A DNA stretch of 61,795 nt, counting the filler, from Hausera hauseri (taxonomy: Eukaryota): assembly GCA_046269625.1 (NCBI GenBank). It is 10 parts of 10 records of this genome, joined end to end, with 100 filler letters (N's around TTAATTAATTAA, not from the genome) between each part and the next. Parts side by side here need not be neighbours in the genome. Positions count along the whole stretch, not along the records: positions 52,909 to 56,933 come from JBJURY010810642.1; 9 more parts are not named here. One strand, written 5' to 3'. Positions within the stretch are counted from its first letter, which is position 1. Each line of letters starts with the position of its first letter. Shown here in pieces: positions 8,166 through 56,933 of the stretch. The notes under the pieces are model-generated. The model was not told the origin of the DNA. It was given only the letters and a program-made list of their open reading frames with translations, and made no database searches. A program made the position numbers and the translations under genes.

Positions 8166-10045
8166 TTAAATGTGCCTCCTTTTACGTTTCCGATTATGAT
8201 AACCAACATGACGCTCCACGTCCGCTTTCCATCCATTTTCTTTATAAGCCTTTAAGAATTTACCGAAGGGTGTGACAATAGCAGTTAAAATCTTACATGA
8301 GAATCCTGTCAAGGTGAAAATCTCGTATCCATTTATGATCGCTTGAATTATCGCTTTAACCAGCTGGATCAAGAAATAGATTACTAGAAATACTGTCGCG
8401 GCTTGTCCGAATATCAGAAATCTTCCCCAAATTTTATACAATATTTCTGTTGTTATTCTTTGATAGTAGTTGACACCTAGTAATGATTCCCATTTTGTTT
8501 GATAACGCGAATCTTCTAGTATTGTGTGTATTGTTCTGTTTAATTCATGTGTGCGTTGGCGTGTGAAAGCTAGAAATTATCTTAATGCCTTTACTTCCTT
8601 CGGTCGGTAAATACCTTTTGCGGCAGTGTTCTGGAACTTATCATCGGTTATTCCTTTTATTAGGTTCGTTCTCGTTAACTTGGTGGGTGGAGCAATTATA
8701 CCACCGTTTGGTAAACTTACCCAATCGGTTTCACTACGTCTAAATATTGGTTCGCCTAGGCTGGTCTTTAAGTCTCAAAATCGTTGGTTGGGTAGAGTTC
8801 GCCAGCAATACTCTAGTGATCGGTGTTACTAATCTTGGTATGTCCTGATATATTATTGGAAGTTCTTGTATACATCTCTTTTCTTCCACGTTAATAGGTA
8901 CATCCTTCTCATATTCATAGGTCAGAACTCCGCTCACTAGGCCAAAAACGCCTTCCTTCATTGGAATTATTGGTGATGCGAGCTCGGGATTGGCATATAT
9001 CAAAGCTAGTTTGGTTCTCATGACTTCTAAGTCTAATTTGCAGTCGTTTGTTATCATTTTGTGATATAACTCAGCTATTCCAGGCTGCCATTTGTAATAA
9101 AAATAGTCGCTGTTTTTCAGATAATCCTCAATCCGAGTAGCTTGAGTCTCTAGCTTAAATGTACTGGTTTTTATTTCAGTCTCGGCTACAAAGAACGCTT
9201 CGTAATTAGTGGCATACATTGCTACGTCACATCTGGTAAGTACGTCTTTACGAACTTTAATCCGTGGGCGTCGGAAATTAATATGGTGGGTGTAGGCTGT
9301 TCCGCTACAACCCCTCACGTTTTTGAATTTGTATTTGTATTACTTACGCAGCGTTTTCCTGTCGTTCCGTTAAACGTAAGTTCTTTAATTTTAATAAAAT
9401 TGCAATCGGCCTTGGCTGGAAGTTCCCAAATTACTACTGAACTTCTAAAACAGGTGCTGTCTTGGATATGGCAGTTGGTTTTCCGTATAGAGCTTAGTAA
9501 CGCTATGGAACATCACTTTTTCTGTGCGCATTTCAGTTTCGTAGAAATCCACAACTACTATGTTCGACTCTAATCCCCTTCCGGTATCATATTCTGCGCC
9601 GCTAGTGTCCAGTATGCATATCTAGTCGTCCTGCTGTTACTTTATACACTCTGATTATTTTTCCTTCTTGTATATCTAGTTCCATGCCATCCCATTTTAA
9701 CCTACCAGTTTCTCTAGCTTGTTTACAGTGTAGGCGTTCTAAGCTCATCAGAATTGGTGGGTTCGTTGGTTTAATTATAGACGAGTGTCCGAGTATTAGT
9801 CCACAATGGAAAATGCTGCGAGATCGTCACAACATATACTCTTCCGTCTAATGCGATTAATTCGCGCTGTTGATACAGTAGTAACTTTTCTCTTTTGTTT
9901 CTAACTTGTGAGGTCTCGCGTCTTCGCACATTTCTAGATCCATTAATGAATATCTTTGGCCCAGTTTGAATTTTTCGCAGTCGTATATCGTAACTGCCCC
10001 CATTTGTCTTATTAACATCATCACGGTCAAAAAATTAATTGACCG
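8166..10045 (-). pseudogene. env: Class III-type viral fusion glycoprotein (chuvirus G / herpes gB-like env)
   Basis: Signal peptide then IYDC; SIFHCGLILGHSSII...CKQARETG; YATNY; NDCKLDLEVMRTKLAL..ANP; RCIQELPI...TPITRVL; C-terminal FGQAATVFLVIYFLIQLVKAIIQAIINGY TM block, all typical of chuvirus-like G. Confidence 0.8.
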
Positions 10046-11825: not shown

Positions 11826-12134
11826 TGGAGATCCAAAGCAATTAGAAAACACAGCAAGACCTCACCTTCTTGAAGGAGCAAAGATAAAAACGAGGTTCCT
11901 TAAAGTATTTTTTTTTATCCTATGTCCTGGCTAACATGAGCCCCTTTCAGACTTTGAATCTGAGCCCGAGAAGCCTTTTCCAGCACTGGTGACATGTGTG
12001 AACTGACCGAGACAGAATGGAGTGTTTGAAGCAGATTCACTGATACACCTCTGAACCACATATGATGGTAGTCACAGAGCTGAGATGGTGGGTATGTGTG
12101 AGGGCGAGCCAGCGCTCTGGCTCTTGTTGATTTG

Positions 12135-15100
12135 ATAAAATGATGTCAGAATCAGGTTTCGGTTAAGCTAAAATTTCGACTGTTTTAAGCTTATCGCGGA
12201 GTTTTTCGAACTGGTTAACAAGTTCTGATGTCCAATATATGAGCTTTTTATTCGGCCCTGCTCCTAGTTGAGTGAAAGGAGCATTTAACTGGCTACAGTG
12301 TGAGATGTATTTATGGACAAAATGTAAAGTCCCAAGGAAACTACGCATGTCAGTAGTGGTTTTTGGTATCTCGATGTTTCATAGATAGTGGATTCTATCA
12401 GGCTGTGAACTGTGATTGTCAGTTGTGATGACATGGCTAAAGAAATTCACCTTTTTCTGGAAGAAGGAACACTTAAAAAAGTTTACTTGCAAATTGCACT
12501 TGTGCAAGCTTTGGAAAACTAGTCTGAGATGTTCTTTATGTTGTTTGGGCAATGCGACTAGTATGTCATCAATGTACGGATATACAAATGGCAAGCCTGA
12601 AAGAACTGAATCAATGTGCCGTTGGAAAGTTTGTGCAGCGTTTTCTAAACCGAATGGCATGAATGCGTATTCGAAAAGACCCAAAGGTGTTATGATGGTC
12701 GTTTTGGGATGTTTTATGGTGTTACCGGTATTTGGTGGTAGGCTTTTTTAAGATCTATGTTTGAATAAATCTTAGTTTTGTGCAATGAATGTAATATGTC
12801 CTTAATCAAAGGTAGAGGATAAGCGTCCATGGTAGTGACATTATTTAGTTGGCGATAATCGCCGCATGGGCGGAATGTGTCATATTTTTTCGGGATGACG
12901 TGAAGTGGTGATGCCCACGGTGATTTTGACCGTTTTATTATGCCAGCTTGTTTGATTGCAGAGAATTCCGCTTGGACTGCCTGTCGACGCCGTGGTAAAA
13001 GTGGGCGGGGTTTTTGCCTAACGGGCCTAGGATTTTCTGTGATGATATGATGAAGCGTCGTGTTAGCTGGTCGAAATGCTGGGTCTTTTTTATTGCGTGA
13101 AAACAAGACTTGGTTAAATATTGTTGCATTTCCGGGCTAAATGTAGTAAAGGCTGTTGTTATTATAGCAGTGGACAGATTGGATTTAGTGTCAGAAACGC
13201 TAGAAATTGAGTCGCCTAAATTGTCCTTGTCAATGCCTTTTGTTCTTCTATTACTGGACTGAAACAAATACGTTGGACTATTTATATTTGTATTAATGAC
13301 GTTCTTATTTGCGTCGGCTGATGGTTCTTTTAGTATCGATTTTATAGGCCAGGTAGGTTGCGTGATTTGTTGGTTATTTGTAGAGGTAGGTTTTGTGGAA
13401 CTGCTTTTGATGATCCGACGTTGTTTACAATCGACAAGGAGGTTGTAGAAAGATAAGAAATCAGATCCAAATATTAGAGATTGTGCATCGGCAACGATGA
13501 ATGTCCAATTGAAAATGTCGGAAAATGGTGGTAAAGTGAATGAAACCTTGGACGTGCCAAAAATGTGTAAAGTTTGGCCGTTAGCTGTGTATAATTTATT
13601 GTTAGATGGTGAGATGAATGGTGTTTTGATAGATGGTGGTAACAAAGAAACGGCAGTCCCAGAGTCAATTAGGAAGTTGATGGGTTGATTGGGTTTTGAC
13701 GTTAAGGAGGCTTTTAATGTGAAAACAGCGTAGATATGGCTATTAGATTGAAGGCGTTTACCTGTACAAGTATGTGCTGAAACATCTGGCGGCTTTGTCA
13801 ATTTTTTGGATAGTAGGATTTGGGGAGTCGGGAGAATTACGATGGAACTGGTTAAGTCGACTGGAAAACGTGCAACGGTTGATGCAGTTTCGGGCTTTAT
13901 TGCTGAACCTATTATAGTAAATACAAACGATATCGGATTTTTGAAAAGCTGGTGTAAAGAATTTACACCCTAAGCAACATTTTTTGGAATGATCCTTGAA
14001 TTTAGTGTGATTATAGCACCCCATATGTCGAGTAGGGGACCTAGCAGATCTCAAATTTTGCGATGAATCACGGCTATGATTGGGTGTGAATCGACCTCGT
14101 CGCGGTATGGATAAATTGCCCAGTTTCGAAGTTAAAGCAGAAATGGCTTGGTGTACTGCCGTGTTTTCAGCCCGAAAAGCGCTTATTTGGTTATTCAGCG
14201 CTAAGATTTCAGTGTTACATGGTGTCAAAGGTGGTTGTAATGTGGCTGCGATGATAGGAGTATAGTGTGCATCTAACATTTCATAGCTTTTATCAACCAA
14301 TTGTGCTAACTTTTCTAGCGTAGCGATGTCTTCAACGATGGTTAGTAAAGCGTGTATTTCTTTTGGTAACAATTGGAGGAAATATATACGCAATAAGTCG
14401 GCACTGTTTGTCTGGTTTATTCCTAACTTGATTAAGTGGGTTAAAGATTTTTGTAAAAACTCTGAGGGTTTCTGATTTCTTGTTGAATTATCATTAAAAT
14501 ATTTTTGGATAACGTTATCCAGAGAAGGCTCATTGAGTTTAAAAACGGCTTTAGATAGTGTCTCGTATGGATCTATGGTTTGGAAGATTTTGGAAAGATT
14601 TGGGAGCAGTGATTTAATAGTGGCTGGCAAGAGTATTAATAGACTATTTGCTTTGAAAAAAGGATCAGTAATGTTATTTGATTTTAGCCACTGTGCATGG
14701 AATTCTAGCCATGTACGACTGGAATGTTGTCTATCTGTAAAATAGTCGACACAAGGGAAATTGTCCAAAGAGGATGTTTCAGGTAGAACAAAAGGGGCTG
14801 CTTTAGAGGAAAGTTTATGGTAGGAATATCGGTGAGTTCCTGAGGTTCGTTTAATGCAGATTTGGTGTCGGAGCCACCGAATAGACGTAGACATAAAGTT
14901 ATTATTAGTGGTGAAGGTGGGGATAAAAGGATGATATTAGATCGGAATAATGAAGATGATATCCGTTTATGCTTAGTGTGTAGCCTTTTAAGTTAATGCG
15001 ATGAGCCAAATCTTAAAACAAATCTGCTACTGTTGCTTTAGTGTGTGCGGTGTGTGTGAATGTTTATTTTGAAGGAAAAAAAAATAGGGAAAAAGGTGAG

Positions 15101-15255
15101 TGCCATGTCAGGGGCATAGTGCGCTACCGGGAACACGATTGCGCCAAAACCACAGGTGCTGAGATTCGGGTAGTGTTAACGGTGGGTCAAACGCCGGAAC
15201 TGCCACTTTATAATTTTCACCTGCTGGCCTGGACGCACTGGTCTTTAGACGCATT
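12135..15255 (-). mobile_element. Gypsy family B copy 1 (leader, gag 13805-14894, PR, RT; truncated before RNase H)
   Basis: Gag with CYNH...CCLGC...CINRC motifs; FLIDSGTAVS; SPWASPLH, PCGDYRQLN, YIDD. Confidence 0.92.
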
Positions 15256-16030
15256 GTAAAAACGTATTTTTCTTCGGAAGTTTGACGTATTTGGTATATT
15301 GTATTATTTTTAATGACGAACAGAAAACAAGTTAAATATTGGTCTAATTCAGAGTCTTGTCCAGACAAAGTTGAATAAATATCGACCAAGTAAATAAAAT
15401 CGTCAAAATCGATGATTTGGTTATCGCGAGAAATTACTAGAATGCGACTTATCAAGTCTTGACAACACAACACCGGGGTTTTCGACCAACATTATGACGC
15501 GATCTGAACCGCAAATAATATCGTGTACGTTCATTTTGTAAGGGAAAAACTCCATCGTCAAAATGGGAATGTCATCCCGTAATTCAGTGTTTAAAACGTT
15601 TTCATTGTATATATTGGAATTTTCGTTGATATTAAACTCAACAATATTATTGGAAATTCTAATAGAAGTCGGAAAATTACCGCTAATTATTTCCTTTTGT
15701 AGAAGTGTAAATTTTGAAGTGTTTGGGTAAGTGGTCATTGGAAAATCCAAAAATATGATGTTAACACATTGGAAAAATGGTGAGAGTTGGTAACAGAAAA
15801 TGTGTGTAAGTATTCAATCAGTTTTATACAAAAACTAAATCTCTGCCAAGATGTTAAGTCGTTTCTGTAAACTACAAAATCTTTTAAATGCCTAATAAAT
15901 TTACTGTGTTCATAATAAGTGAACAATGCATAATAAAGGGAAATAGGAAATTCACTGACCTTAAACTGTATCGGCGTATCATTAAATCTGGTAATTCCAA
16001 AGCGTCTGTGAGAGTACGACAAAGATTTTT
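15256..16030 (-). pseudogene. Intronless fragment of an unidentified protein gene, fused between Sec7 fragment and Gypsy leader
   Basis: Overlapping ORF pieces 15108-15473, 15421-15750, 15735-16022; duplicated at about 18850-19620. Confidence 0.45.
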
Positions 16031-16034
16031 TTGA

Positions 16035-16200
16035 AATTTTGCTGATGACACAAAATCCTTTCGGAAAAAGTCAAACTGATCCACGTATGCATACATGACC
16101 TCGATATTATACTTGTTATTTTCACCAAGAAAATCTCCAATGGCCGTTTTTTCAAGTCGTTCGTCTTTGTATAAAAATTCCGCAATGTCATCCGATAAGT
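16035..16200 (-). pseudogene. Sec7 domain fragment of a BIG1/BIG2-type (ARFGEF) Arf GEF
   Basis: DIAEFLYKDERLEKTAIGDFLGENNKYNIEVMYAYVDQFDF..KDFVS. Confidence 0.85.
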
Positions 16201-16399
16201 CAGATTTTGAGGACGCTGTCGGAAGATTGTGAATCGTCGAGTACAATGACCTTGATATCAATGTAATGTAATTCAACTATTCTCGTTTGACTTTTGGAGA
16301 CGTCGGTTATTTTCGTCATTCGTGCGTTCAGTTCACAGCTAACTAAAATATTCTGAGACTTGTTCACTTGTAAACTGAAAGTAAAATTCTTTTTCCCAT

Positions 16400-17845
16400 C
16401 CAGTCTTTATTGTAGTATTCATTTATATGTTTTCTGATAGCATGTCGCTTATACATTACCACTGATCCAATGTATCTGTAATCTTTGGTCAGGTGATTTA
16501 TGAATTGGAAAAAGTTGTCGAGGTATTTGATAAAAGTAAAATAACACTAAAAATTTTTTTGTTCGACTCCAGCATCCCGTGAGTTTATCATTGTCTTCAT
16601 TATCGCTGTCATTTAAACCATTTTCTTTAATCAACAATTCCTGTTTCACATTCAATTGCAAATCATGGATCCTTACTGGAACAGTGTGACATGACTCTTC
16701 AGTAATAGTTGGTGACATTCTTGGCTTGATGTTAGATTTATTGATTGTCTTACTCGGTACAGTGCTATTAGATCGATTGTTGAATGGTCTATTAGAAGGC
16801 TTAGTCGAAAAATTGATGTTCGCAACCGGTTCGTAAGAACTGCCTACTGACTCCGTTTTCGGTGTAACAGAACGCATCATGCCTTCTTTCAGTTGGAAGC
16901 CTGCCAAACTCATTGATTTGGTTAACATGTAATGCTGAAGATCGTATATGCCAGACACGGACATGGATATATTTCGTTGATCGGTATCTTTTTGACTATC
17001 ATCATGTCTGTTATTTCAGGATCTTCGCAGAATAGAAAATAGTCCCCAGATGTTAGCACAAGATAATGTTTGTTTGGCAGCGGCTTTCCATAATTTTCAC
17101 GAGTACTTTCAATATGCCGGATTTTTCTTTTGATTTTGGCAAATAATCTTTCTTCTTGAATCATTTCCTCTTGCAATGTCGCAGTCATTTTCCGATTAAT
17201 CAAGAATGCTCCTCTCGACACAAATTTACTTTTGATTTTAAGAGCCAACACTACTTGAAAAAGGACTTAGTCGTGAATACTTTGCGTTGTAAAATCAAAA
17301 GCATGAAACACAAAATATCTCCCCAAAAGTCATTATTCATACTGGGACGATATAATACGTCAAATTTCGAGACCATGTCATGCCATTTGTGCATTGGATT
17401 TCGATGAGTTTGATCAGCCAACAGTAATTACGATTATTCAGTGCATTGAGATAAACACATCCTACTAGATGAAGGCCACATTTGATGAATATAACGGTGT
17501 AATTGTAGAATAGGATTATGTTCCATGATGATATAATATACTTCCGCTTGTTTTGCAACATTTGAAATCCGATCCAGAAGTAAACGGTACTTAAAATCAT
17601 GTATCCCAATGAAAATATTGTTGGTTTAATAATTCCGAGAACAAATACGGCTGTCAGGCAAAACCAGTAAAATTGATAAAAAATAAAGTATTTTATATAT
17701 TCAACGAGTGATGATTTTTCACAGATAAAATCCTTCTCTTCAATATAGGGCATATCATTGACTAAGGTTGGAATGTTTCGTGCACCTTTGTAGTCAAATG
17801 ATTGTTTTTCAATACGAAATACGTGGTACTGAAAATGCTTTGTTC
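16400..17845 (-). pseudogene. PIEZO: Intronless internal fragment of a Piezo mechanosensitive channel
   Basis: FYWFCLTAVFVLG...IFSLGY...WNIILFYNYTVIFIK...CWLIKL; DILCFMLLILQRKVF; SRGA; SGDYFLF. Confidence 0.88.
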
Positions 17846-17914: not shown

Positions 17915-18040
17915 TACCATTGGTCAGTTTTCCTTACCCCCGATGACGTGTCCTAGTCTCATGGGCCTGTTTTCCTTCCCCCGATGACGTGTTCTCCTCT
18001 AATTGGCTTCCTTCCTTCCCTGGGGTAGGTGGGTGTCTTG
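17915..18040 (-). repeat. About 41-bp tandem repeat (CCCCGATGACGTGT core), homologous to the repeat downstream of pPolB at 56845-56933
   Basis: Reverse complement matches GGGAAGGAAAGAAGCCAAT...GGACACGTCATCGGGGGAAGGAAAAC. Confidence 0.75.
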
Positions 18041-18088: not shown

Positions 18089-19620
18089 GTGTCTGACATA
18101 TCCGATCTTCAGTATTACATGTTAAACAAATCAATGAGTTTGGCAGGCTTCAAACTGGAAGATGGCATGATGCGTTCTGTTACGCCGAAAGTGGAGTCAG
18201 TAGACAGTTCTTACGAACCGGTTGCGAACATCAATTTTCCGATTGAGACTTCTAATAGACCATTCGACAGTCGATCTAATAGCACTGTACCGAGTAAGAC
18301 AATCAATAAATCCAACATCAAGCCAAGAATGTGACCAAATATCATGAGGAGTTATATCACACTGTTCCAGCAAGGACCCATGATTTGAAATTGAATGTGA
18401 AATAGGAATTGTTGATTAAAGAAAATAGCTTAAATGGCAGCGATAATGAAGACGATGATAAACTCACGGGATGCTGGAGTCAAATGAAAAAATTTTTACA
18501 GTGTTATTTTACTTTTATCAAATATCTCGACAACTTTTTCCACTTCATAAATCACCTGACCAAAGATTACAGATACATGGNNNNNNNNNNCATAAACGAC
18601 ATGTTATCAGAAAACATATAACTGAATACTGCAATAAAGACCGGATGGGAAAAAGAATTTTACTTTCAGTCTACAAGTGAACAAGTCTCAGAATATTTTA
18701 GTTATTTGCACAAAGACGAACGACTTGACAAAACGGACATCGGAAATTTTCTTGGTGAAAATAATAAGTATAATATCGAGGTCATGTATGCATACGTAAA
18801 TTAGTTTGACTTTTCCCGAAAGGATTTTGTGTCCTCATCAGCAAAATTTCAAAAAAATCTTCGTCGCACCCTCACAGACGCTTTGGAATTACCAGATTTA
18901 ATGATATGCCAATACAGTTTAAGGTCAGTGAATTTCCTATTTCCCTTTATTATGCATTCGTTTACTTATTATGAACACAATAAATTTATTAGGCATTTAA
19001 AAAATTTTGTAGTTTACAGAAACGATCTACCATCTTGGCTGAAATTTAGTTTGGCATAAAATCGATTGAATACTTACATACATTTTTCTGTTACCAACTC
19101 TCACCATTTTCCCAATGTGTTAACATCATATTTTTGGATTTTCCAATGAACAGTTATCCAAACATTTCAAAATTTACACTTCTACAGAAGAAAATAATTA
19201 GAGGTAATTTTCCGAATTCTATAAAAATTTCGAATAATATTGTTGACTTTAATATCAACGAAAATTCCAATATATACAATAAAAACGTTTTAAACACCAA
19301 ATTATGGGATGACATTCCCATTTTGACGATGGAGTTTTTCCCTTACAAAATGAACGTACATGATATTATTTGCGATTCAGATCGCGTCATAATGTTGGTC
19401 GAAAACCCCGGTATTGTTTTGTCGAAAGACTTGATAAGTCGCTTTCTGATAATTTCTCGCGATAACCAAGTCATAGATTTTGACGATTTTATTTACTTGG
19501 TCGATATTTATTTAACTTTGGACAAGACTCTGAATTAAACCAATATTCAACTTGTTTTCTGTTCGTCATTAAAAATTATATAACATACCAAATGTGTCAA
19601 ACTTCAGAAGAAGAATACGC
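18089..19620 (+). pseudogene. Inverted duplicate of the Piezo-Sec7-unknown chimera (Sec7 junction has an internal deletion)
   Basis: Colinear reverse-complement similarity to 15256-16958. Confidence 0.88.
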
Positions 19621-22600
19621 TTTTACAATGCGTCTAAAGGCCAGTGCGTCCCGGCCAGCAGGTGAAAATTATAGAGTGGCAGTTCCGGCGTTTGACCCAC
19701 CGTTAATACGACCCGAATCTCACAGCACCTGTGGTTTTGTCGCAATCGTGTCCCCGGTAGCGCACTATACCCCTGACATGACACTCACCTTTTTCCCTAT
19801 TTTTCTTTTCCTTCAAAATAAACATATGCACACATCACACACACGCTAAGGCAACAATAGCAGATTTGTTTTTAGATTTGGCTCATAGCATTAACTTAAA
19901 AAGATTCACACTAAGCATAAACGGATACTACCTTCATTATTCCGATCTAATATCATCCTTTTTATCCCCACCTTCACCACTAATAATAACTTTATGTCCA
20001 CGCCTATTCGGTGGCTCCGATACCAAATCTGCATTAAATGAACCTCAGGAATTCACCGATATTCCCACCATACACGTTCTTCTAAAGCAGTCGCCTTTAG
20101 TTCTACCTGCAGCATCCTCTTTGGTCAATTTCCATTGTGATGACTATTTTACAGATAAACAACATTCCAGTCGTACATGGCTAGAATTTTATGTACAGTG
20201 GCTAAAATTAAATAACATTACTGATCCTTTCTTCAAAGCAAGTAGTCTATTAATACTCTTGCCAGCCAGTATTAAATCACTGCTCCCAAATCTCTCCGAA
20301 ATCTTCCAAACCGTAGACCCTTACAAAACATTATTCAACGCCATCCTTAAACTCGCCGAGCCTTCAATGGATAACATTATAAAGAAATATTTCAATGACA
20401 ACACCATAGGCACTAAAACCCTCTGAATTTTGACAAACATCTTTAACCCAATTAAACAAGTTAGGGGTAAACCAGACAAACAATGCCTACTTACTGCGTA
20501 GATATTTCCTTCAATCATTACCGAAAGAAATACGCGCTTTACTAACTGTAGATGAAGATATCGCTACGTTAAAAAAGTTAGCACAACTGGCTCATAAAAT
20601 ATTCAATACACACCATACTCCTATTGTCGCAGCCACATTACAACCACCTTCGACACCACCTAACGCTGAAATCTAAGCACTGAATAACCAAATAAACGCT
20701 CTCCGGGCTGAAAACACTTCAATGCACCAAGCCATTTCTGCTTTAACTTCTAAATTGGACAATTTATCTATGCCGCGACGAGGTCGATTCACACCCAATC
20801 ATAGCCGTGCTTTATCGCAAAATTCGAGATCCGCTAGGTCCCCTACTCGACCTATGGTGTGCTATTATCACACTAAATTCAAAGACCAATCCAACAAATG
20901 TTGCTTGGGGTGTAAATGCTTTACACCAACTTTTCAAAAATCCGACATCGTTTGTATTTACCATAATAGGTTCAGCAATAAAGCCCGAAACTGCATCAAC
21001 GGTTTCACGTTTTCCAGTCGACTTAACTAATTCCATCGTAATTCTCCAAATTCCTCAAATCCTACTATCCAAAAAAACTGACAAAGCCGCCAGATGTTTC
21101 GGCACATACTGGCACAAGCAAACGTCTTCATTCTAATAGCCGTACCTAGGCTTTTTTCACATTAAAAGCCTCCTTAACATCCAAACCCAATCAACCAATC
21201 AACTTTCTCATTGACTTAGGGACTGCTGTTTCTTTGTTACCACCATCCATCAAAACACCATCCATATCACCATCTAACACTAAATTCTACACAGCTAACG
21301 GCCAAGCTTTACGCATTTTCGGCACCTCCAAAGTTTCATTCACTTTACTACCATTCTCCGGAATTTTCAATTGGACATTCATCGTTGCCGACACAAAATC
21401 TCCAATACTTGGGTCTGATTTCTTATCCTTCTACAACCTCCTTGTAGATTGTAGACAACGTCAGATCATTAAAAGCAGTTTAACAAAACCAACCGATCAT
21501 GCAGCCTATCTCAACTAAAAAATCAATATTGAAAAAACCATTAACCAATGCGTATAAAAACCTTACTGATAAAAACAATATAAACAATCCTACTTTTCTG
21601 TTGAAGTCCGATTTAGGCGGCCTGATTTCTACCATTTTCCACAATAAGTCCGATCAAACCTTTACTACGCTTAGCTAAGAAATGCAACAATATTTAGTCA
21701 AGTCTTGTTTTCATACAATTAAAAAAGACCCAGAATTTCGAACGGCTAACACGACGTTTCATCATATCATCACAGAAAATCTTAGGCCTGTTAGGTAGAA
21801 ACTCCGCCCACTTTCACCACGCCGTCGACAGGCAGTCAAAACGGAATTCTATGCACTCGAGCAAGATGGCATCATAAAACGGTCAAAATCACCTTGGGCA
21901 TCAGCACTTCACGTCGTCCCGAAAAAAGATAGCACATTCCGCCCATGCGGCGATTATCGCCAATAAAATAACGTCACTACCATGGACGCTTATCCTCTAC
22001 CTTTGATTAAGGATATATTACATTCCTTACACAAGACAACAATCTATTCGACCATAGATCTGGGAAAAGCCTACGACCAAATTCCGGTAGCACCAAAAGA
22101 CATAAAAAAACGGCCATTATAACATCTTTTGGTCTTTTCGAATACGTATTCATGCCGTTAGGTTTAAAAAACGCAGCACAAACTTTCCAACGGCACATTT
22201 ATTCAGTTCTTTCAGGTTTGCCAGTTGTATATCCATACATTGATGACATACTAGTCGCATCGGCATCATTTAAACAACACGAAGAACATCTCACACTAGT
22301 TTTCCAACGCTTGCACAACCACAATTTGAAAGTGAACTTTTCTAAGTGTTTCTTCTTTCAAAAAGAGGTCAATTTCCTTGGCCACGTCATCACACCCGAC
22401 GGTCACAGTCCACAGCCTGATAGAATCCATCGGGTACGAAACATTGAGCTACCAAAAACCACTACTGATATGCGCAGTTTCCTCGGGACTTTACATTTTG
22501 TACATATATACGTCCCACACTGTAGCTAGTTAACTGTTCCTTTCGCTCAACTAGGAGCAGAGCCGAAGAAAAAGCTCATATATTGGACGCCAGAACTTAT

Positions 22601-23685
22601 TAACCAGTTCGATGAACTCTGCGACAAGCTCAAAAAAGTCGACATTTTAGCCTACACAAAACCTGATGCTGACCTCATTTTAACAACCGACACATCAACT
22701 ACAGCAGTAGCAGCGGTTCTTCATCAAATATCTCAAGGTATAAATAAACCCTTAGAATTTTTTTCTCGCAAGCTGCAGCCACAAGAACGCCGTTATTCCA
22801 CCTTCGATAGAGAACTCCTGGCAATTGTTTTAACTCTGAAACATTTTTCACATTCGCTTATCGCTCGTTCCTTCACTATCCAAACGGACCACAAACCTCT
22901 TGTTCACGTAATGAACATGAAACAACCATCACTGCGACAAGAATGCCGTATATTATATTTGTCAACATTCAGCTTTAAAATTCGCCATATTTCTGGCACA
23001 GACAATTTAATAGCCGATTTCTTATCACGGTCAGTTGAAGCAATTAGCGTCACACCAATATTTTCAAAGGACCAGTTAATCCAAAATCTACCTTCCAATG
23101 AAATTCTGCAACAATACAAATCCGTGCAAATCACCGATGGAATAGCCATGGATACTTCGACACCTGGACAACATTTGGCAATTTTGACACCTCCTCTCCA
23201 ACGAACTGCATTTCAACATGTTTATTCTTTGCATCACCCAGGTTACAAGGCTACATTCTGCATTCTCAAACACCACGTAACATGGCCATCGATGAGGTTT
23301 GATGTACAGAGTTGGGTTAGGCAATGCGTAACTTGCCAAAAGTTCAAAGTAGCTAAATATCTTAAACCACCATTATTCCATTTCCCGTGTTCATCCCGTT
23401 TGAGTCAGTTCACATAGATATCGTTGGCCTATTACCTTCCGATAATGGTCACCAATTTATTTTAACAATGATGGACTGCGCGTCTCGTTGACCTGAAGCC
23501 ATCCCTTTTCGCTCCATCAATATGGACTCCATTGCAGACGCATTCATAAGGTTTTGGATTAGTTGGTTCGGTTTACCTAGCTATATAATTACAGACCAAG
23601 CTCCTCAATTTGAGTCGAATCTATTCAAATCTTTATTTAATCGACTGGGCATAAATCACATACACACAACGCCATATCACCCCCA
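19621..23685 (+). mobile_element. Gypsy family B copy 2 (leader, gag, PR, RT, RNase H, partial INT), decayed
   Basis: Inverted homolog of copy 1; YIDD; YSTFDRELL; HHPG...CVTC; ITDQAPQFES; TTPYHP. Confidence 0.92.
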
Positions 23686-33081: not shown

Positions 33082-33669
33082 NNNNNNNNNNNNNNNNNNN
33101 NNNNNNNNNNNNNNNNNNNNNNNNNTTAATTAATTAANNNNNNNNNNNNNNNNNNNNNNNNNNNNNNNNNNNNNNNNNNNNATATACTATTTATACATTG
33201 TTGATCAAACAAGGCACATGCAACAAATGCCTATCGGACGCAGCGTCATCATAAATTGACGTGGGAAGAATCTAATACGCAGTTATGTAGACATTGTCTC
33301 ATGCGAGACATTGAAACTACATGTGATATATACATGAATTTCATATGTTCATATGATATACATGAACATATACGTCAAGGATCATGTTGGTGGGCGAAAG
33401 ATATTTAACAGTACATTTCCAGAATTACGAATATGTGCATATGAATGTGGTAAATTAGTATATATACCGAAAAACGTTACATGTATTTATTGTGAACATG
33501 CCTTCACATTGTGCTTATAAAATGTGTTTAGCGTTATGTAAAAGTTATGTTTCTAAAACGTAAATGTGTTATGAAATACTTGTTTTATATGTAAGACAAA
33601 AATACAGTAAAAACATTATAGTTGAATCACTGTCATATTCATTGTCTGTGTCGGGTCTTTATTAGACAT

Positions 33670-37846: not shown

Positions 37847-38140
37847 CGATCGAACAACAAGTTCTACATAGTCTTCTTTGGACAAAAAGTATACATTCTC
37901 CAGTTCATTTAGAAATTTGACACAATCTATTTTCCCACTGCATATTTCATTTGTCAGCCGTTTAGTTTCAGCTTCTAAATCTATTTTGTAATTTTAAGTA
38001 TATAGATAATTTGGGAGAACAGAATTAAAATCATACCATTTGTCGTACTATTCCTTGAAACAACGCCATTTTATTTACACACCAATATTTATATCCAACC
38101 ATCACAATTAAAACAAAAAAAATTTGGCACTAAATTCAAC
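37847..38140 (-). repeat. Dispersed repeat with coding-like content, second copy at about 45250-45470 (+)
   Basis: Shared GAAATATGCAGTGGGAAAATAGATTG and GAAGACTATGTAGAA; both translate to EICSGKID. Confidence 0.65.
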
Positions 38141-45200: not shown

Positions 45201-45679
45201 TGATACACACAAGCACGTGTATTACATGGATTATAGGTGGACTTAAAAATTTGAATTTTGCGCCAAAATTTTTTTGTTTTAATTTTGATATATTTGTTTT
45301 CATTTCAGTAAGTTGATATAAATATTTAAAATTGTATTTAGGAGGTGAAATTAAGCGAATCACAGAAGAAATATGCAGTGGGAAAATAGATTGAGACCAA
45401 TTCCTAAATAGAATCCACACTTTTTATCAAAGGAAGACTATGTAGAATTTGTAGTTCAAACAATATGTATTACAAATATTACACAAGAATTTAAAAGAAG
45501 ACAAAGAAACGTTTTACTTACTTCGTTATCCTTGTGGGTTCGCTTGTAATATTTTTATCAATGTTTGTTCGTTAACAAATGTTTTTACTTAGTGATAAAT
45601 GGTAATGTATTATAAACTCAATAGTACAAAAGAAAGAAATAGAACGATAAAAACATTTATTGGTATGAAATATACAAAC

Positions 45680-47712
45680 TAAGTACAATAATGACCAAAT
45701 GCGACACTTTTGTTTTTGTTTATCCAATATCTTTTGTCATCGAACGGGTCTAGTGCCTTCTTTTTCGTGCTGATCGTCATTAACTAGTGACTTTGTCCCG
45801 ATACGCTCCTGGTTAAACTGTTGCCCCACACCCATTTTCATAAGCCTTTTGATAGTTGATGAACTGTAAGTCTGTTTGTTTGAGATTTATTTCTTTGCAT
45901 TTGAGGACAGGTCTGCTTTGAGTTTTCAATGCATAGCATTTTGGTCTCAAGAAAATTGCCTCTTGATATTCAACGCAACCCTTACTTTCATCCTTAAATT
46001 TTTCGATTACAGACGCGAAACGAGTAGAGTAAAGCAGGTCGATGCCACCATAGTTAGAAGTGTCTAACTGCTCATTGGCTATCATTGCTGGCTAGAGCTG
46101 TGTTCGCAAATTAACGCCACGGCATTTGAGGAAGAGTCTGTCCGTATCACCAGGAGTAATATTTAGCTCACAATTGAACTGTTGCCTCTAAGACTCCAAC
46201 TCTATGTAATTCAGCTCGTACATTCTCAATTTGGAAAGATCCAGAACTGTCTGTCCAATGCATGATGGTTTGTCTAATGTAATCACATCTTTATCTAGAA
46301 GAACGGCAACTAGATCATCAGTTATAAGAATACTTTCTTTAAACCGTGGCTTGCTAACATAAGTAATAAGCTTCTTCACGGCTTCACCAATGTATAAAGG
46401 TCTATCTAATGTAACAATGTCTTTATCCAGAAGAAAGACAACCAGATCATCGGCTATAGTAATATTTTCTTTAAACTGTGCCTTGATAGCATATGTAATT
46501 AGCTTCTTTGCATTATTACACAATATCAAGTTGGACCTTGTCAATAGATTTTCAACTGTTTTTCCATACAAGATATTGCTTTTGAGCACAAAGAAGTCCT
46601 TCCCAAAAGGATTATCTGCTTCAGCCCTCTTAGCAGTATTTAAATCGATGTAATCCTTAAAGATATAACCCTGGTCAAACACAACAGCCCGATGCACCTT
46701 TTCAACTACAGAGCCTAACTCGATGTACAACTGTAAGAGCCAATAGTGAATAACATAGTTAGACTTACGCTCATGTGTCAGCAACAATTTCTTTACTTTA
46801 GAACAAGGAGGACATTGGGTGATTGGAGCTAAAGGCAGTTGGTCTAATTTATCATGCTTATCCTATGGATGCTTAAATCAACCTCAAAGACTAAACCTCG
46901 TTTTTTCCTAACAATGTCAATAAAGGGCAATTGGTCATTCAGACTATGTAATTTATCTTCATCATAAGTCTAAGTCAAATTCACAAATGGCAAAGGTTGA
47001 GATAAAGCCCAGCCGTACAAATTATTTATATCTATGTACAAGAGACTGGTGTTTTCATCAACGGTAACCCTATGCTTATTTACAAAAGTCATACCACCGC
47101 GAATACCTGATTGGAAGAAACTATACATTTCAGGATCTTGAATGAGCTCAATCTTAGAAGGACTGGATTTCAATGCCGTGGCCCAAGATAAACCAGGAAT
47201 TGAAACAAAGTTAACGGCTTCTAAATCATCCTGCTACTTAGCCTCCTTTCTAAAGCGTGCAAAAATATCTCCTAACAAGTATACATCTAGTTTCATGTAT
47301 ACTAACATGTAATCTAACAGGCAGTTACATCTATATTTCAACCAAACTAGTTGTGCTTCTTCATAATCGCTATCGCTAACACCATCCCATTTTGGAGGTA
47401 ATTCAGAAATCGACTGCAAATCACTGAATGTTTTGGCTGCAGTGTACGGGAAAATGATTTTTTCCCTTAATGATGTCTGAAGGAAAAGCCGATTCTGTGA
47501 ATGGGTAAGTATCTAAATTGGAGGTTAATGTTTTGATTGAAGCAGCTAAAAACTGAAGAGTGTCTAGAAATCTAATAGTAACAGACTTTTTATCCGAACA
47601 TCTTACCATTGCATACATAGTCATAAATTTTTCAGTCATCTGTAGAATAATATCTAATTCCCAACTGCTGAATTTACTTAAAGCGTGTTTTAAGATATGA
47701 TGAAGATCATAT
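45680..47712 (-). pseudogene. pPolB copy 4 (more divergent subfamily)
   Basis: RFLDTLQFL; GIRGGMT...YIDINNLYGWALSQPLP; NILYGKTVEN; GDTDR; KFKDE...LRPKCY. Confidence 0.9.
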
Positions 47713-52808: not shown

Positions 52809-52961
52809 NNNNNNNNNNNNNNNNNNNNNNNNNNNNNNNNNNNNNNNNNNNNTTAATTAATTAANNNNNNNNNNNNNNNNNNNNNNNNNNNNNNNNNNNN
52901 NNNNNNNNTCATGTGCAGGTGTTACAATGAATAATAATGACATATTGTTATTGTTGTCGTA

Positions 52962-53447
52962 TTAATAAAGTTGTTGTATATACATGCTGCCTTTTGAAAT
53001 AAGAAAATCAAAAATCGATAATAATATATTGTCTAAAACACAATTAACAAAATCACTATAAATCAAATTCTTCAAACCAGTTATAACAAGGTTCCCCGTA
53101 TGAAAAACATTTACACAGAAGATTATAACAAGTTAATCTAAGTGCAGGAAATAATTCCGGTTCATAGAAACTTGGTTTACTCATCACCAGTGTGTTAAGA
53201 TCTAGGGTTCACCGAAATCACATGTCACTACAATTGATTGTATACCAAAATGGAAATATTATAAACTGCATGGGTAAACTGCATGGATCAATAGGTTGTT
53301 TGCATCTCATTATTCGGCATTTTCCATAGGAAAAGAATATAATCGTATATTCTTGGTATCGTAAACACACTGTTTGGGTTCGCAGCGAAATTTGAACTCA
53401 TCTAATGAAACTGTAATGAAATCTTTGTAATTGATATTGGTCAACAT
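52962..53447 (-). pseudogene. Divergent TATA-binding-protein-like gene (core domain only), frameshifted
   Basis: Repeat 1 MLTNINY...TIIFFSYGKCRIM; repeat 2 IQSIVVTCDFG...YEPELFPAL...VNVFHTGNLVITGLK, compare TBP YEPELFPGL...IFxSGKxVxTGAK. Confidence 0.75.
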
Positions 53448-53482
53448 CTTTGTAAAAATTAAAATGAGTGCCTGGGTATTGA

Positions 53483-53545
53483 TTTATATACTTTTTGAAC
53501 TTAAGTTTGATTGGTTCATTGAAATTGAACAAATCTGATTGGTTC
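53483..53545 (-). promoter_or_regulatory. Putative promoter of the TBP-like gene: TATA box and two CCAAT boxes
   Basis: GTATATAAAT about 40 nt upstream of ATG; TGAACCAATCA twice (ATTGG at 53510 and 53538 on +). Confidence 0.5.
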
Positions 53546-53839
53546 ACACAAGACAGTGCGAGTTGACATGTTCATATTTTTCATTATTTCAAAAATCATT
53601 TCATCGAATAGTGCGTTTTAAATTGCACTGTCTTGAAAATTAATTTTTTATTTAGAATTGTGAATTCTATATCAACTGCTAATCAAATGTTCATGGTGAT
53701 TGACAGAATTGTCACATGGTTATGAAACCATATTTCAGTCAGTTTCAATAGAAATGAATATTTCATATGTCCAACATGTAAGGCAGTATGCACAACCACC
53801 TGTGAAGATTTCGACGATATGCATAATCAACATCTCAAA

Positions 53840-56724
53840 GACGAGCGGCTGGACTCTTGCCTACATCAAACAATTGGCCATTCATGTGCACAAGTATTCC
53901 CCGATGAGAGGTAGTTTGTATATACAGCTTCCGGAATGGATTGCACGGAAAGATGCAAGCATCAATGTGAAAAATGATGGCAACATGTACTTCAAGTATA
54001 AAAATCTCTCAAAATATTTAGAGTTAAGATCATGCTTTACGTGTTTCGTTATATCAAAACATCTAACATGAGTATGGTTTCGATTGTATTCCGTTTCTAC
54101 CAACAATTGATGACATCCATAGATATCTTTGGAGTAGATGAATTGGGTAAATTCTATCTTTTAAAAGTATGCAAAGTTGAGGTGGAGGACCATAGGGATT
54201 TGCTCCTGCTAGACGATAGTGAAAAGAGGCATTTCACCTGGATCAAGAACTTTAAAAGTCTATTAAGATCCAAAATAACAATAACACAGGATTTGAACTT
54301 TGCAAACGATGTTTGACCAATTTCAGTGGCGAATTAACTGTGGAGAGTTTTGAAGAACACAACATATATTGCAACAGTAATAATTGTATCAGAATGGAAT
54401 TCCCCAATAAAGATTATTTTGAATCCAAGGAATATGAGAAGATGCACAAAGTGCCAGTTGTCGCATATTGCGACTTTGAGGTTATCCTTAGTCCAGTTCA
54501 GAGTTGTAGCCCAAATCCACAACAAAGCAGCACAACGGCATACCAATATCACGAACTCTCATCATATTGTATGTATGCAAAAGGAATGGACAAGGAACCA
54601 TTTCTATTCAGGGGTTCAAATGCAGCAGCACATTTTATGAAGCGATTAGAAGAAATGGCCCATAAGATTGAAATTATGTTGGAGCAGCATAAGGATTAGG
54701 GTAAAATAACTGTCAAAGAAACAAGAATGACGCGAGAAAACAACATGCTACTTGTGCTCCAAATCCTTCAACGGAGAATCGCAAAGTCAGGGATCTGCCA
54801 TTTTGCAGGCTGATATCGAGGCACAGCATGCAAGTCATGTAATCTACGTTGTAAAACATGCACATATGTACCTGTAGTATTCCACAATCTCAATGGCTAT
54901 AATTTCCACTTCATTGTTCAGGAATTAGGAAATATCCCGGGGAATATTGAAGTGATCCCAAACAGTGAGGAGAAATGTCACATTTACCAAAAATGTAGGA
55001 AAAATTAGACTTCGATTCATAAATAGTTAACGTTGCATGAATTCATCTCTTCATAGCCTCGTAAAGAACCTTCCATTAGAAGAACGTAAGGAAACGAAGT
55101 GGTTCTTTCCATCAACATTTGACTTGGTTAAAAGAAAAGGAGTTTCTTCCTGTGATTGCATAACATCATGGGGATCGCTGGATTAAACATCATTGCCAAT
55201 CAAGAATGACTTTTACAGCTAGTTGTCAGACAGCCATATCAGCGATGCGGATTATCAACACGCACAAAAGGTCTGACAGGCTTTCAAATGTAGGACAAGA
55301 GAACGTAGTGACATCTCCAAACCGATGTGCTGCTGCTGGCGGATGCCTTTGAAAGCTACTGGCTGGATCCAGCTTATTTTTTACAGCTCCAGGAATGAGT
55401 TGTGCAGCAGTGCTGTGATATACCAGTATTAGACTGCATTTCTTGGGGGGTTATGACATGATCCTCATGATCGAGAGACATTAGGGACAGAATATTTCAG
55501 GCCATTCACCGGTATAGTGAGGCCAACAGCAAGTATATGGCCGAATATGATCCATCTAAGGCATCCACATATAACATACCTGGATGCCAACAACTTGTGT
55601 GGATGGACAATGAGTGCTCCATTGCCATATAACAACTCCAAATGGGCGGGTCATCCGGAAGATTAAGCAAGACAAGATGTAGATCCCAATGGAGAAATGG
55701 GCTACGTACCGAAGGTGGATGTGGAATATGACTAGTCAATCCACACAAGGCATGAACAGCTGCCATTTTTGTCGGAGAGCAGGCAGCCACCTTATGGAAA
55801 ATTTAAAAGGCTACTGTCATCTGGAGAATAGGGAGATATGTAGCCCACTACATCAATCTCCAGCAAGCAATGATGAATGGACTCCGCATCACGAAAATCT
55901 ATCGGGCCTTGCAGTTTAGCCAGTCTACATGGTTGAAACTTTATATAGACCTCAATACGTAGCTGCTGGCCAATGCCAAAAGCGTCTTTGAAAAAGATCA
56001 GTTCAAGTTATATAACTATAGCGTTTTTGGCAAAACATGGGAAAATATCGGAAACAGGATCAACATCGAACTGGTCCGTGAATGGGAAAGAGCCAAGAAG
56101 TTGATTGCTAAGCCGAACGTCTACCGCAGAACGATATGCTGAAACCGCGTGAGTATCCATATGTTAATGACATTGGAGTTCAACAAGCCTATATTTTTGG
56201 CATGTCGATACTGGACTTATCCAAGACCTTGATGTATGACTTTCATTAGAACATCATGGTCCCAACATTCAAGGAGCTGCAGCCTATGTATATGGATACT
56301 GATAGTTCCATATGTCAGATCCATACAGATGACATTTTTAACGGCTTCGCTCAATTGGCGCAGCATATGGATACTTCCGACTATCCAAAAGACCATAGGA
56401 ACAAAAAGGTTCTTGGGAAGTTCAAAGATGAGGTAAATGGTCAAATAATAAGATTTGTTTCGTTAAGATCCAAAATGTATGCTATCGATGTAAGTGGTCA
56501 AATCAAAGAGGATGAAAGGCGTGCAGAGCCGCATTAGCTCGGCTTCCAAGATTGTGGCAGTTATGAGAGATCAGACACACATTATATTGGATGAGACGAA
56601 TTCAATCTAAGGCACATGAAATTCAAACAGTAGAGCTGTGGAAAGAGCCTTGACTAGATGGACGACAAAAGGCACATGGACGACGAAATCTGCACACTGT
56701 CTCATGGATATGTATTATTGTAAA
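53840..56724 (+). pseudogene. pPolB copy 5
   Basis: HKYSPMRGSLYIQLPEWI; YCDFE; FHNLNGY; DANNL; YMDTDS; GKFKDEVNG..LRSKMY. Confidence 0.92.
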
Positions 56725-56844
56725 TATTGACATCGTTGTTGTGATTTTGTTGTTCTTGTTAATATCGTTGTATTGTATCAATAAATCTTGTTTTAAAAAT
56801 CGTGTTGCATTCTTGGTTAGTAGTAGGATGTGATGACTTGGAGC

Positions 56845-56933
56845 CAACCCCCCCCCGGGAAGGAAAGAAGCCAATGGGAAGAGGACACGTCATCGGGGGA
56901 AGGAAAACTGGCGAATGGGAAGAGGACACGTCA
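56845..56933 (+). repeat. GC-rich tandem repeat after pPolB, possible Polinton subterminal repeat
   Basis: ATGGGAAGAGGACACGTCA repeated at about 39-bp spacing. Confidence 0.65.

Follow-up and report, generated by a model that had tools for sequence, protein, structure and literature searches.

A decayed TBP-like gene beside a protein-primed polymerase

The recognisable content of piece 9 of the window (positions 52909-56933) is a decayed gene for a protein related to the TATA-binding protein (TBP) and, about 300 bases away and running in the opposite direction, a decayed protein-primed DNA polymerase B (pPolB) (Table 1). The window is the whole stretch of DNA that was analysed (61,795 nucleotides); it consists of ten pieces with the same 100-base spacer (N44-TTAATTAATTAA-N44) between each piece and the next, so that neighbours across a spacer are not true neighbours. 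Most of the pieces are Ty3/gypsy or pPolB remnants. A profile search of the window placed only pPolB and TBP in piece 9 and found no capsid, integrase or ATPase gene there, and no gene in this piece is preceded by the motif YATAAAC described below.

Table 1. Positions of the TBP-like gene, its promoter elements and the associated remnants, counted along the whole window
Feature	Position	Strand	Basis or remark
Mini-TBP gene of Polinton type, decayed, without introns and with about four frameshifts	52962..53447	-	Pfam, family profile, frameshift-aware alignment, tree
TCATT at -20, initiator-like	53463..53467	-	Read from the sequence; TCAYW there in 34/41 family upstream regions
Canonical TATA box TATATAAA at -43	53483..53490	-	Upstream-region motif reading
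CCAAT box at -67	53510..53514	-	Upstream-region motif reading
CCAAT box at -95	53538..53542	-	Upstream-region motif reading
Protein-primed DNA polymerase B, decayed; start inferred	53754..56723	+	About 70% nucleotide identity to the piece-4 and piece-5 copies
pPolB 3' tail, AATAAA at 56780, common to piece 5	56724..56815	+	Sequence comparison
Similarity to the final codons and 3' tail of pPolB	52909..52990	+	AATAAA at 52964 overlaps the TBP stop
Gene C4 remnant, separate piece	33205..33548	+	Converges on the piece-5 pPolB as in L010
Gene C13 remnant, separate piece	37847..37993	-	C13 is a TBP neighbour in several family loci
Second C13 remnant, separate piece	45344..45510	+	Weak, E 7e-4; converges on the piece-7 pPolB
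pPolB remnant of the L010/L020 (TBP-bearing) lineage, separate piece	45688..47711	-	43-47% identity

The TBP-like gene, whose family we refer to as mini-TBP, reads from an ATG at 53447-53445 to an in-frame stop at 52964-52962. An earlier note on this DNA, made from the sequence alone, had proposed a divergent TBP-like gene hidden by frameshifts, and this was borne out. A frameshift-aware alignment (X at the breaks) against six of eight family guides placed frameshifts near 53362, 53253, 53206 and 53121, and the other two guides gave two frameshifts and two stops instead. The peptides YEPELFPAL and VFHTGNLVITGLK are both encoded in the gene, in different frames. With the Pfam TBP model, which the note had suggested as a check, two frames of the window were hit but stayed below threshold (20.1 and 16.8 bits against a cut-off of 22.9), and the family profile scored 56.3 and 51.2 bits (E ~1e-18) on the same frames and matched nowhere else in the window. 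Both TBP repeats had been called recognisable; they are recovered by the family profile and the fold, but Pfam detects only the second. The gene is intronless, as claimed, but its protein is even shorter than the TBP core with which the note had equated it. The TATA/CCAAT promoter and the divergent orientation relative to the fifth pPolB copy were both confirmed.

The window copy is broken and is probably a fossil that does nothing. In the host run X1, 3670 contigs fell on 52909-54100, 3015 of them less than 95% alike; these contigs are short, none spans the whole stretch, and their summed depth gives no copy number. Given this many contigs, most of them below 95%, the TBP gene is a multi-copy repeat and not a lone retrocopy.

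Five pPolB copies occur in the window, that of piece 9 being the fifth, and its lineage combines PF03175 with an endonuclease VII domain. The stretch at the left end of piece 9 had been likened to the tails of other pPolB copies. In shuffle-tested alignments it matched the pPolB ends of pieces 9, 4 and 5 (0, 0 and 1 of 500 shuffles scored as high) but not those of pieces 3 and 7, and the likeness includes the last codons and not the tail alone. A second pPolB probably converged on the TBP gene from the left, past the end of the piece. On the other side, 3' of the pPolB tail, a short repeat-rich stretch (56829-56933) that also occurs in piece 2 (17917-18033) is probably an LTR insertion cutting the element. 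Separate pieces contain remnants of gene C4, which is a regular gene of TBP-bearing Polintons, and of C13, and the pPolB remnant of piece 7 shares 43-47% identity with the polymerases of L010 and L020.

Other retroelements of the window were also recorded. Piece 1 contains an LTR retrotransposon with a Monjiviricetes-type fusion glycoprotein (8166-9339, minus strand; PF24664, E 1e-15 and 3e-11) that adjoins protease, RNase H and integrase. A retroelement region of 4.7 kb is duplicated in inverted orientation (12132-16958 and 18089-22686, 86-90% identity), and a Sec7 fragment (15884-16276) and a fragment of Piezo TM25-28 (16922-17843) lie in and beside it. Taken with the Alpha-type pPolB, the Piezo fragment and the retroelement with a glycoprotein suggest that the host is an invertebrate animal.

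A mini-TBP family in Polinton gene arrays

A search with one broken frame of the window copy returned seven intact relatives among ten candidates. The family profile gave 1028 hits, the best 120 of which were mostly 130-180 aa long, and a search of the full library yielded ~57 family clusters (50% identity) at E <= 1e-30. We aligned 114 family sequences, with a median length of 150 aa. All three intact members compared with the Pfam TBP model passed its cut-off, with 44-63 bits. The window copy aligned to the eight family guides at 40-52% identity over ~140 residues with scores of 229-295, as against only 16-17 with two animal TBPs. A quick tree with 83 rows put all 39 from Polintons, the window copy among them, on one side of a branch with an SH-aLRT of 100, as a clade on a long stem; the remaining rows were 16 eukaryotic and 28 archaeal, viral or other sequences, with no labelled TRF2. 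The comparison with other TBPs proposed in the earlier note thus places the window copy in the Polinton clade, to which none of the cellular or viral TBPs sampled belongs.

Viral scans with the TBP profile returned distant TBPs only. The TBPs of giant viruses (Nucleocytoviricota, including asfarvirus B263R-like proteins) resemble mini-TBP as viral matches to the TBP fold, but they share 8-20% identity with it, and the viral TBPs included in the tree are not part of the clade. Giant viruses have their own RNA polymerase, and no RNA polymerase was found by Pfam among 35 neighbour ORFs of the elements studied here. A search for longer forms gave one family member of 357 aa (P0125) among 50 hits, the others being cellular-type TBPs; P0125 has ~200 extra C-terminal residues and is a candidate fusion or read-through.

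The genomic context of the family was read from 78 metagenome loci, of which 72 (L003-L074) were taken as family and the six weakest, with distant TBPs, were left out; a further locus, L104, was added. Both TBP repeats lay in a single ORF in 55 of the 72 loci. Using profiles built from the same loci, we found a Polinton core gene in 40 of the 73, and the share rose with locus length (5/27, 15/24, 10/12 and 10/10). All ten family loci of at least 6 kb had Polinton core genes, seven of them including pPolB, which was present in eight family loci overall. The neighbours carried the Pfam labels A32 ATPase, rve, Peptidase_C5, PF03175 with endonuclease VII, and PLA2. Cluster C7, represented by a protein model from L010, matches the double jelly-roll capsids of PBCV-1, Sputnik and mavirus (best E 1e-15), and cluster C6, which had no Pfam hit, is labelled penton/mCP by position and size only. 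L104 combines pPolB, rve integrase, packaging ATPase and adenain protease in one element; L010, L020, L055 and L059 have three of these four core genes, with no protease in the sequenced stretch, and L033 lacks pPolB. No terminal inverted repeats or target-site duplications were seen in the five loci examined, all of which are incomplete. The TBPs form a distinct clade that sits inside Polinton (Alpha-adintovirus-like) gene arrays, a point on which we have very little doubt, and with it the earlier reading of the gene as element-borne stands.

In their PF03175-type pPolB, rve, ATPase, adenain protease, double jelly-roll capsid and PLA2-like gene, these elements resemble the Alpha adintoviruses and Polintons/Mavericks of the accessible text of PMC8502044. 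In that text (Starrett et al. 2021), TBP appears as an abbreviation in the legend of Fig. 5 only, under 'MELD viruses (and related elements)'; the label is absent from the animal maps of Fig. S2, and the word promoter from the main text. Among the titles and abstract starts of the literature searched, none concerned a Polinton TBP or its promoter. Within titles, abstract starts and the text of PMC8502044, the published record on TBP in such elements amounts to this one figure-legend mention.

All 16 TBP-bearing ATPases formed one clade against the controls (SH-aLRT 100), whereas the TBP-bearing pPolBs did not form one clade, which indicates that TBP follows the packaging/capsid module and not the polymerase. 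The L104 pPolB is not in the clade that the other TBP-bearing pPolBs form, which likely reflects a module swap. Represented by the piece-4 copy, the polymerase lineage adjoining the window TBP clusters with L086/L089 (SH-aLRT 93), two loci in which no TBP hit was found, and the adjacency of TBP and pPolB in piece 9 may come from a module swap or a rearrangement. Swapping of virion and polymerase modules has been described for adintoviruses (PMC8502044, section 7). The earlier note had envisaged a pPolB element or virus carrying its own basal transcription factor. The gene is indeed carried by an element, but it is tied to the packaging/capsid module, and a general basal role is improbable.

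It should be noted that the L104 contig, an almost complete Polinton with a TBP gene, was binned into a bacterial MAG, and that the atlas label 'Archaea 100%' rests on one record; both are likely due to binning contamination. Several neighbouring genes are recorded here as well. Cluster C2 (L014:1503-1838 and 20 other loci) is a conserved protein of ~110 aa adjoining TBP, with no Pfam hit and with apparent intron signals upstream. Cluster C4 (L010:9591-10052 and 15 other loci) is a DEDD-like, exonuclease-looking protein with conserved Cys/His and is perhaps the 'MAEL' gene of adintovirus maps. Cargo genes include a leucine-rich-repeat protein (L035:1918-3327) and a KilA-N/zinc-finger protein (L070:606-1739).

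A predicted TBP fold with a replaced DNA face

The model of the intact member P0001 (pLDDT 96) has the two-repeat saddle fold and superposes on human TBP over all 145 residues, from yeast residue 66, with a Z-score of 14.1 and an rmsd of 2.3 A. Helix H1 is missing from its first repeat and the next helix region is shortened; solved TBP cores measure ~180 aa against the family median of 150 aa.

Canonical TBP uses four intercalating Phe and two symmetric Asn (yeast numbering). We counted the corresponding residues over the 114 sequences, with a yeast numbering that was checked against P0138. Among the residues kept are N69 (112), F116 (114), F190 (113), F207 (114), E186 (110, the other four being Asp), E188 (114) and P191 (101). 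The Phe/Asn set is incomplete, with F99 replaced by Pro in 113/114 and N159 by Ser in 111/114, and six further positions are replaced almost throughout: V71N (111), V122R (113), T124M (114), I194R (112), V203C (114) and L205N (114). TRF2 has lost three Phe, unlike mini-TBP, which keeps three. Mini-TBP therefore shares with cellular TBP (PF00352) the two-repeat saddle, the YEPELFP stirrup and three of the four intercalating Phe, but differs from it in its length of ~150 aa, the absence of H1, the eight replaced residues and its long separate branch.

The residues E186 and E188 form what we take to be the acidic TFIIB-binding stirrup, and its retention makes it a candidate TFIIB contact in mini-TBP. 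On the DNA-facing side, I194, V203 and L205 are the three positions that alter box specificity in the yeast variant TBPm3, according to PMC1636458; there, the 5' half of the box is recognised by the C-terminal repeat of TBP and the 3' half by the N-terminal repeat, and selections with TBPm3 went against C in the downstream half. The near-invariant polar replacements in mini-TBP speak for a change of target and against decay. However, the changes at F99 and N159 and the helix loss could instead reflect a protein that binds DNA weakly or not at all.

The YATAAAC box and a possible late-gene switch

The motif YATAAACR was read before nearly all structural genes of the TBP-bearing elements. In 22 long loci, ATAAAC ranked second among the enriched 6-mers, with 192 occurrences where shuffles gave 88.6, and its reverse complement was not enriched (59 against 73). 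Within the 100 nt before the ATG, after removal of near-identical regions, the box was present for ATPase in 18/19, MCP in 9/9, mCP in 10/13, INT in 11/13, PRO in 4/5 and PLA2 in 8/9 cases, with shuffle means below 1, and it lay upstream of the core protein in 12/15. By contrast, the counts were 1/41 for TBP, 0/6 for C11, 0/4 for KilA and 1/3 for pPolB. A small ORF starting with MG (C35) lies between the core-protein gene and the integrase in L006, L008, L026, L033, L037 and L050, and the box is therefore further from the integrase ATG.

The position of the box is also constrained. Out of 123 sites, 49 fell at -40 to -33 and only three at -32 to -21, with a peak ~36 nt before the ATG; this pile-up and drop fit a TATA-like element with a start ~30 nt downstream. 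TATAAAC is one base away from the canonical TATA box, and the first base is C in 42 of the 123 sites, which makes two changes. A 1999 structural study of TBP on TATA variants reportedly described a Hoogsteen reading of TATAAAC; host TBP has been crystallised on TATAAAC as the C(-25) variant (PDB 1qn3 title).

To what extent the box goes together with TBP was compared in control Polinton-type loci, for which 18 viral loci were picked by pPolB alone and the 16 full-length matches were used. YATAAAC preceded 60/68 core genes of TBP-bearing elements vs 0/38 in the controls. The control records are partial, 13 of the 16 loci having been searched only in part; two are near-duplicates, and their starts were taken as the first ATG. 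No TBP hit was found in the 16 control loci. Since the TBP-bearing elements are one ATPase clade, this is one independent contrast, so that its Fisher value does not count as independent evidence, and these elements could have inherited both the box and TBP without a direct link between the two. Viral-contig scans with capsid and ATPase alignments found no relatives and thus yielded no control from inside the TBP-bearing clade. In L104, which was not used in motif discovery, the box preceded six of seven core genes, with 12 sense and two antisense sites; the six sites lie at -96, -17, -77, -98, -28 and -78, none at the peak distance.

The promoters of the TBP genes themselves have a different composition, with a canonical TATA box in 19/41 family upstream regions, TGTTTWA in 15/41 and a TCAYW initiator in 34/41. 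The spacing between TATA and initiator was 30-32 nt in 29 cases. Counted without regard to position, neither CCAAT (16/50; shuffle mean 8.7, maximum 16) nor TATA (27/50; mean 19, maximum 28) was clearly above shuffles, and the positional TATA-initiator spacing is the better promoter sign. TGTTTWA is a third promoter word, found at the TATA position before the TCAYW initiator in TBP upstream regions of L013-L058 and also at C9 and C11 genes.

We consider it probable, with moderate confidence, that the window holds a dead mini-TBP copy of a Polinton lineage whose intact protein binds YATAAAC and recruits TFIIB and RNA polymerase II for late genes. In such a scheme, host TFIID would make mini-TBP early from a host-type promoter, with TATA or TGTTTWA plus an initiator and, in some copies, CCAAT; the promoter is read at the level of sequence and the early timing we infer. 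Structural genes, carrying YATAAAC ~36 nt before the ATG on the sense strand only, would then be served by mini-TBP, whose recoded DNA face would read a box that host TBP presumably reads poorly, while its acidic stirrup would recruit host TFIIB. TFIIB and RNA polymerase II would switch on the capsid, packaging, protease and integrase genes. That both steps hold, box reading by the recoded face and TFIIB recruitment by the stirrup, we judge only marginally on the probable side. The fuller proposal, that this Polinton clade runs a one-gene late switch in which a TBP of 150 residues reads YATAAAC and recruits TFIIB and Pol II with no further viral factors, we offer tentatively and hold to be somewhat short of probable. 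Mini-TBP is probably not a general basal factor, given its recoded DNA contacts and a variant box that stands before structural genes and not before TBP.

The vTBPs of beta- and gammaherpesviruses (BcRF1, ORF24, UL87) act on TATT late promoters with host Pol II, according to the accessible text of PMC4893493. In our working model the Polinton system is alike in coupling a TBP-like protein of its own to a one-base TATA variant at late genes that host Pol II transcribes. However, the herpesvirus proteins are large and belong to a six-member complex, whereas the Polinton protein comes from a stand-alone gene of 150 aa and its box is YATAAAC. BcRF1 gave only a remote fold match to mini-TBP (E 1e-3, TM 0.37), and mini-TBP is therefore not a member of the herpesvirus vTBP family; the variant box on structural genes but not on TBP recalls herpesvirus late-gene restriction by analogy only. 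Partner proteins of the herpesvirus vPIC had no Pfam hit among the 35 neighbour ORFs, several of the small neighbours being unnamed. If the proposed late switch is real, no smaller viral pre-initiation system would be known, and mini-TBP would be a natural altered-specificity TBP. The herpesvirus vTBP/TATT logic would then have been invented independently in a genome of only 15-20 kb, with a natural TBP-box pair orthogonal to that of the host, and the switch would be evidence that these transposons keep a timed virion programme. The timing of Polinton capsid genes bears on whether Polintons function as viruses. With the protein and the 7-base box both named, the proposal is directly testable, the words to compare being TATAAACA, CATAAACA, TATAAAAG and TGTTTTAA.

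Of the alternatives, the strongest is that YATAAAC serves host TBP as a weak TATA box and that mini-TBP, for example, competes for TFIIB or TBP partners, damping host or element transcription. The TFIIB-facing E186 and E188 are near invariant while the DNA face lacks F99 and N159, the motif link is a single contrast and host TBP crystallised on the C(-25) variant, all of which would suit such a competitor. We nevertheless think it unlikely: the replaced DNA-face residues are invariant and not drifting (R, N, M and C in 111-114 of 114), a first-base C puts a third of the sites two changes from the canonical box, and the box avoids the promoter of TBP itself.

Less likely still is that mini-TBP is specific for another site, such as TGTTTWA or the element termini, and that YATAAAC is an initiator-type or RNA-level signal. 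The occurrence of TGTTTWA at the TATA position in the TBP upstream regions would fit this, as would the many YATAAAC sites inside the preceding coding sequence, but the abrupt drop near -33 suits a distance rule of the TATA type and not an initiator. A splice signal was rejected, YAG preceding the ATG in only 16/62 sites, and so was a poly(A) signal, the base before ATAAAC being A in only 28/191 sites, which argues against AATAAA.

The reading of the copy as a processed pseudogene derived from host TBP or TRF2, inserted by chance next to pPolB, can largely be set aside. In its favour are the lack of introns, the broken state of the copy, its place at the margin of a piece rich in repeats, and an adjoining pPolB from outside the main TBP-bearing lineage. 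Against it, the copy scores far lower with animal TBPs than with its family, and it nests in the Polinton clade (in a tree without labelled TRF2) with its own promoter and many sibling copies.
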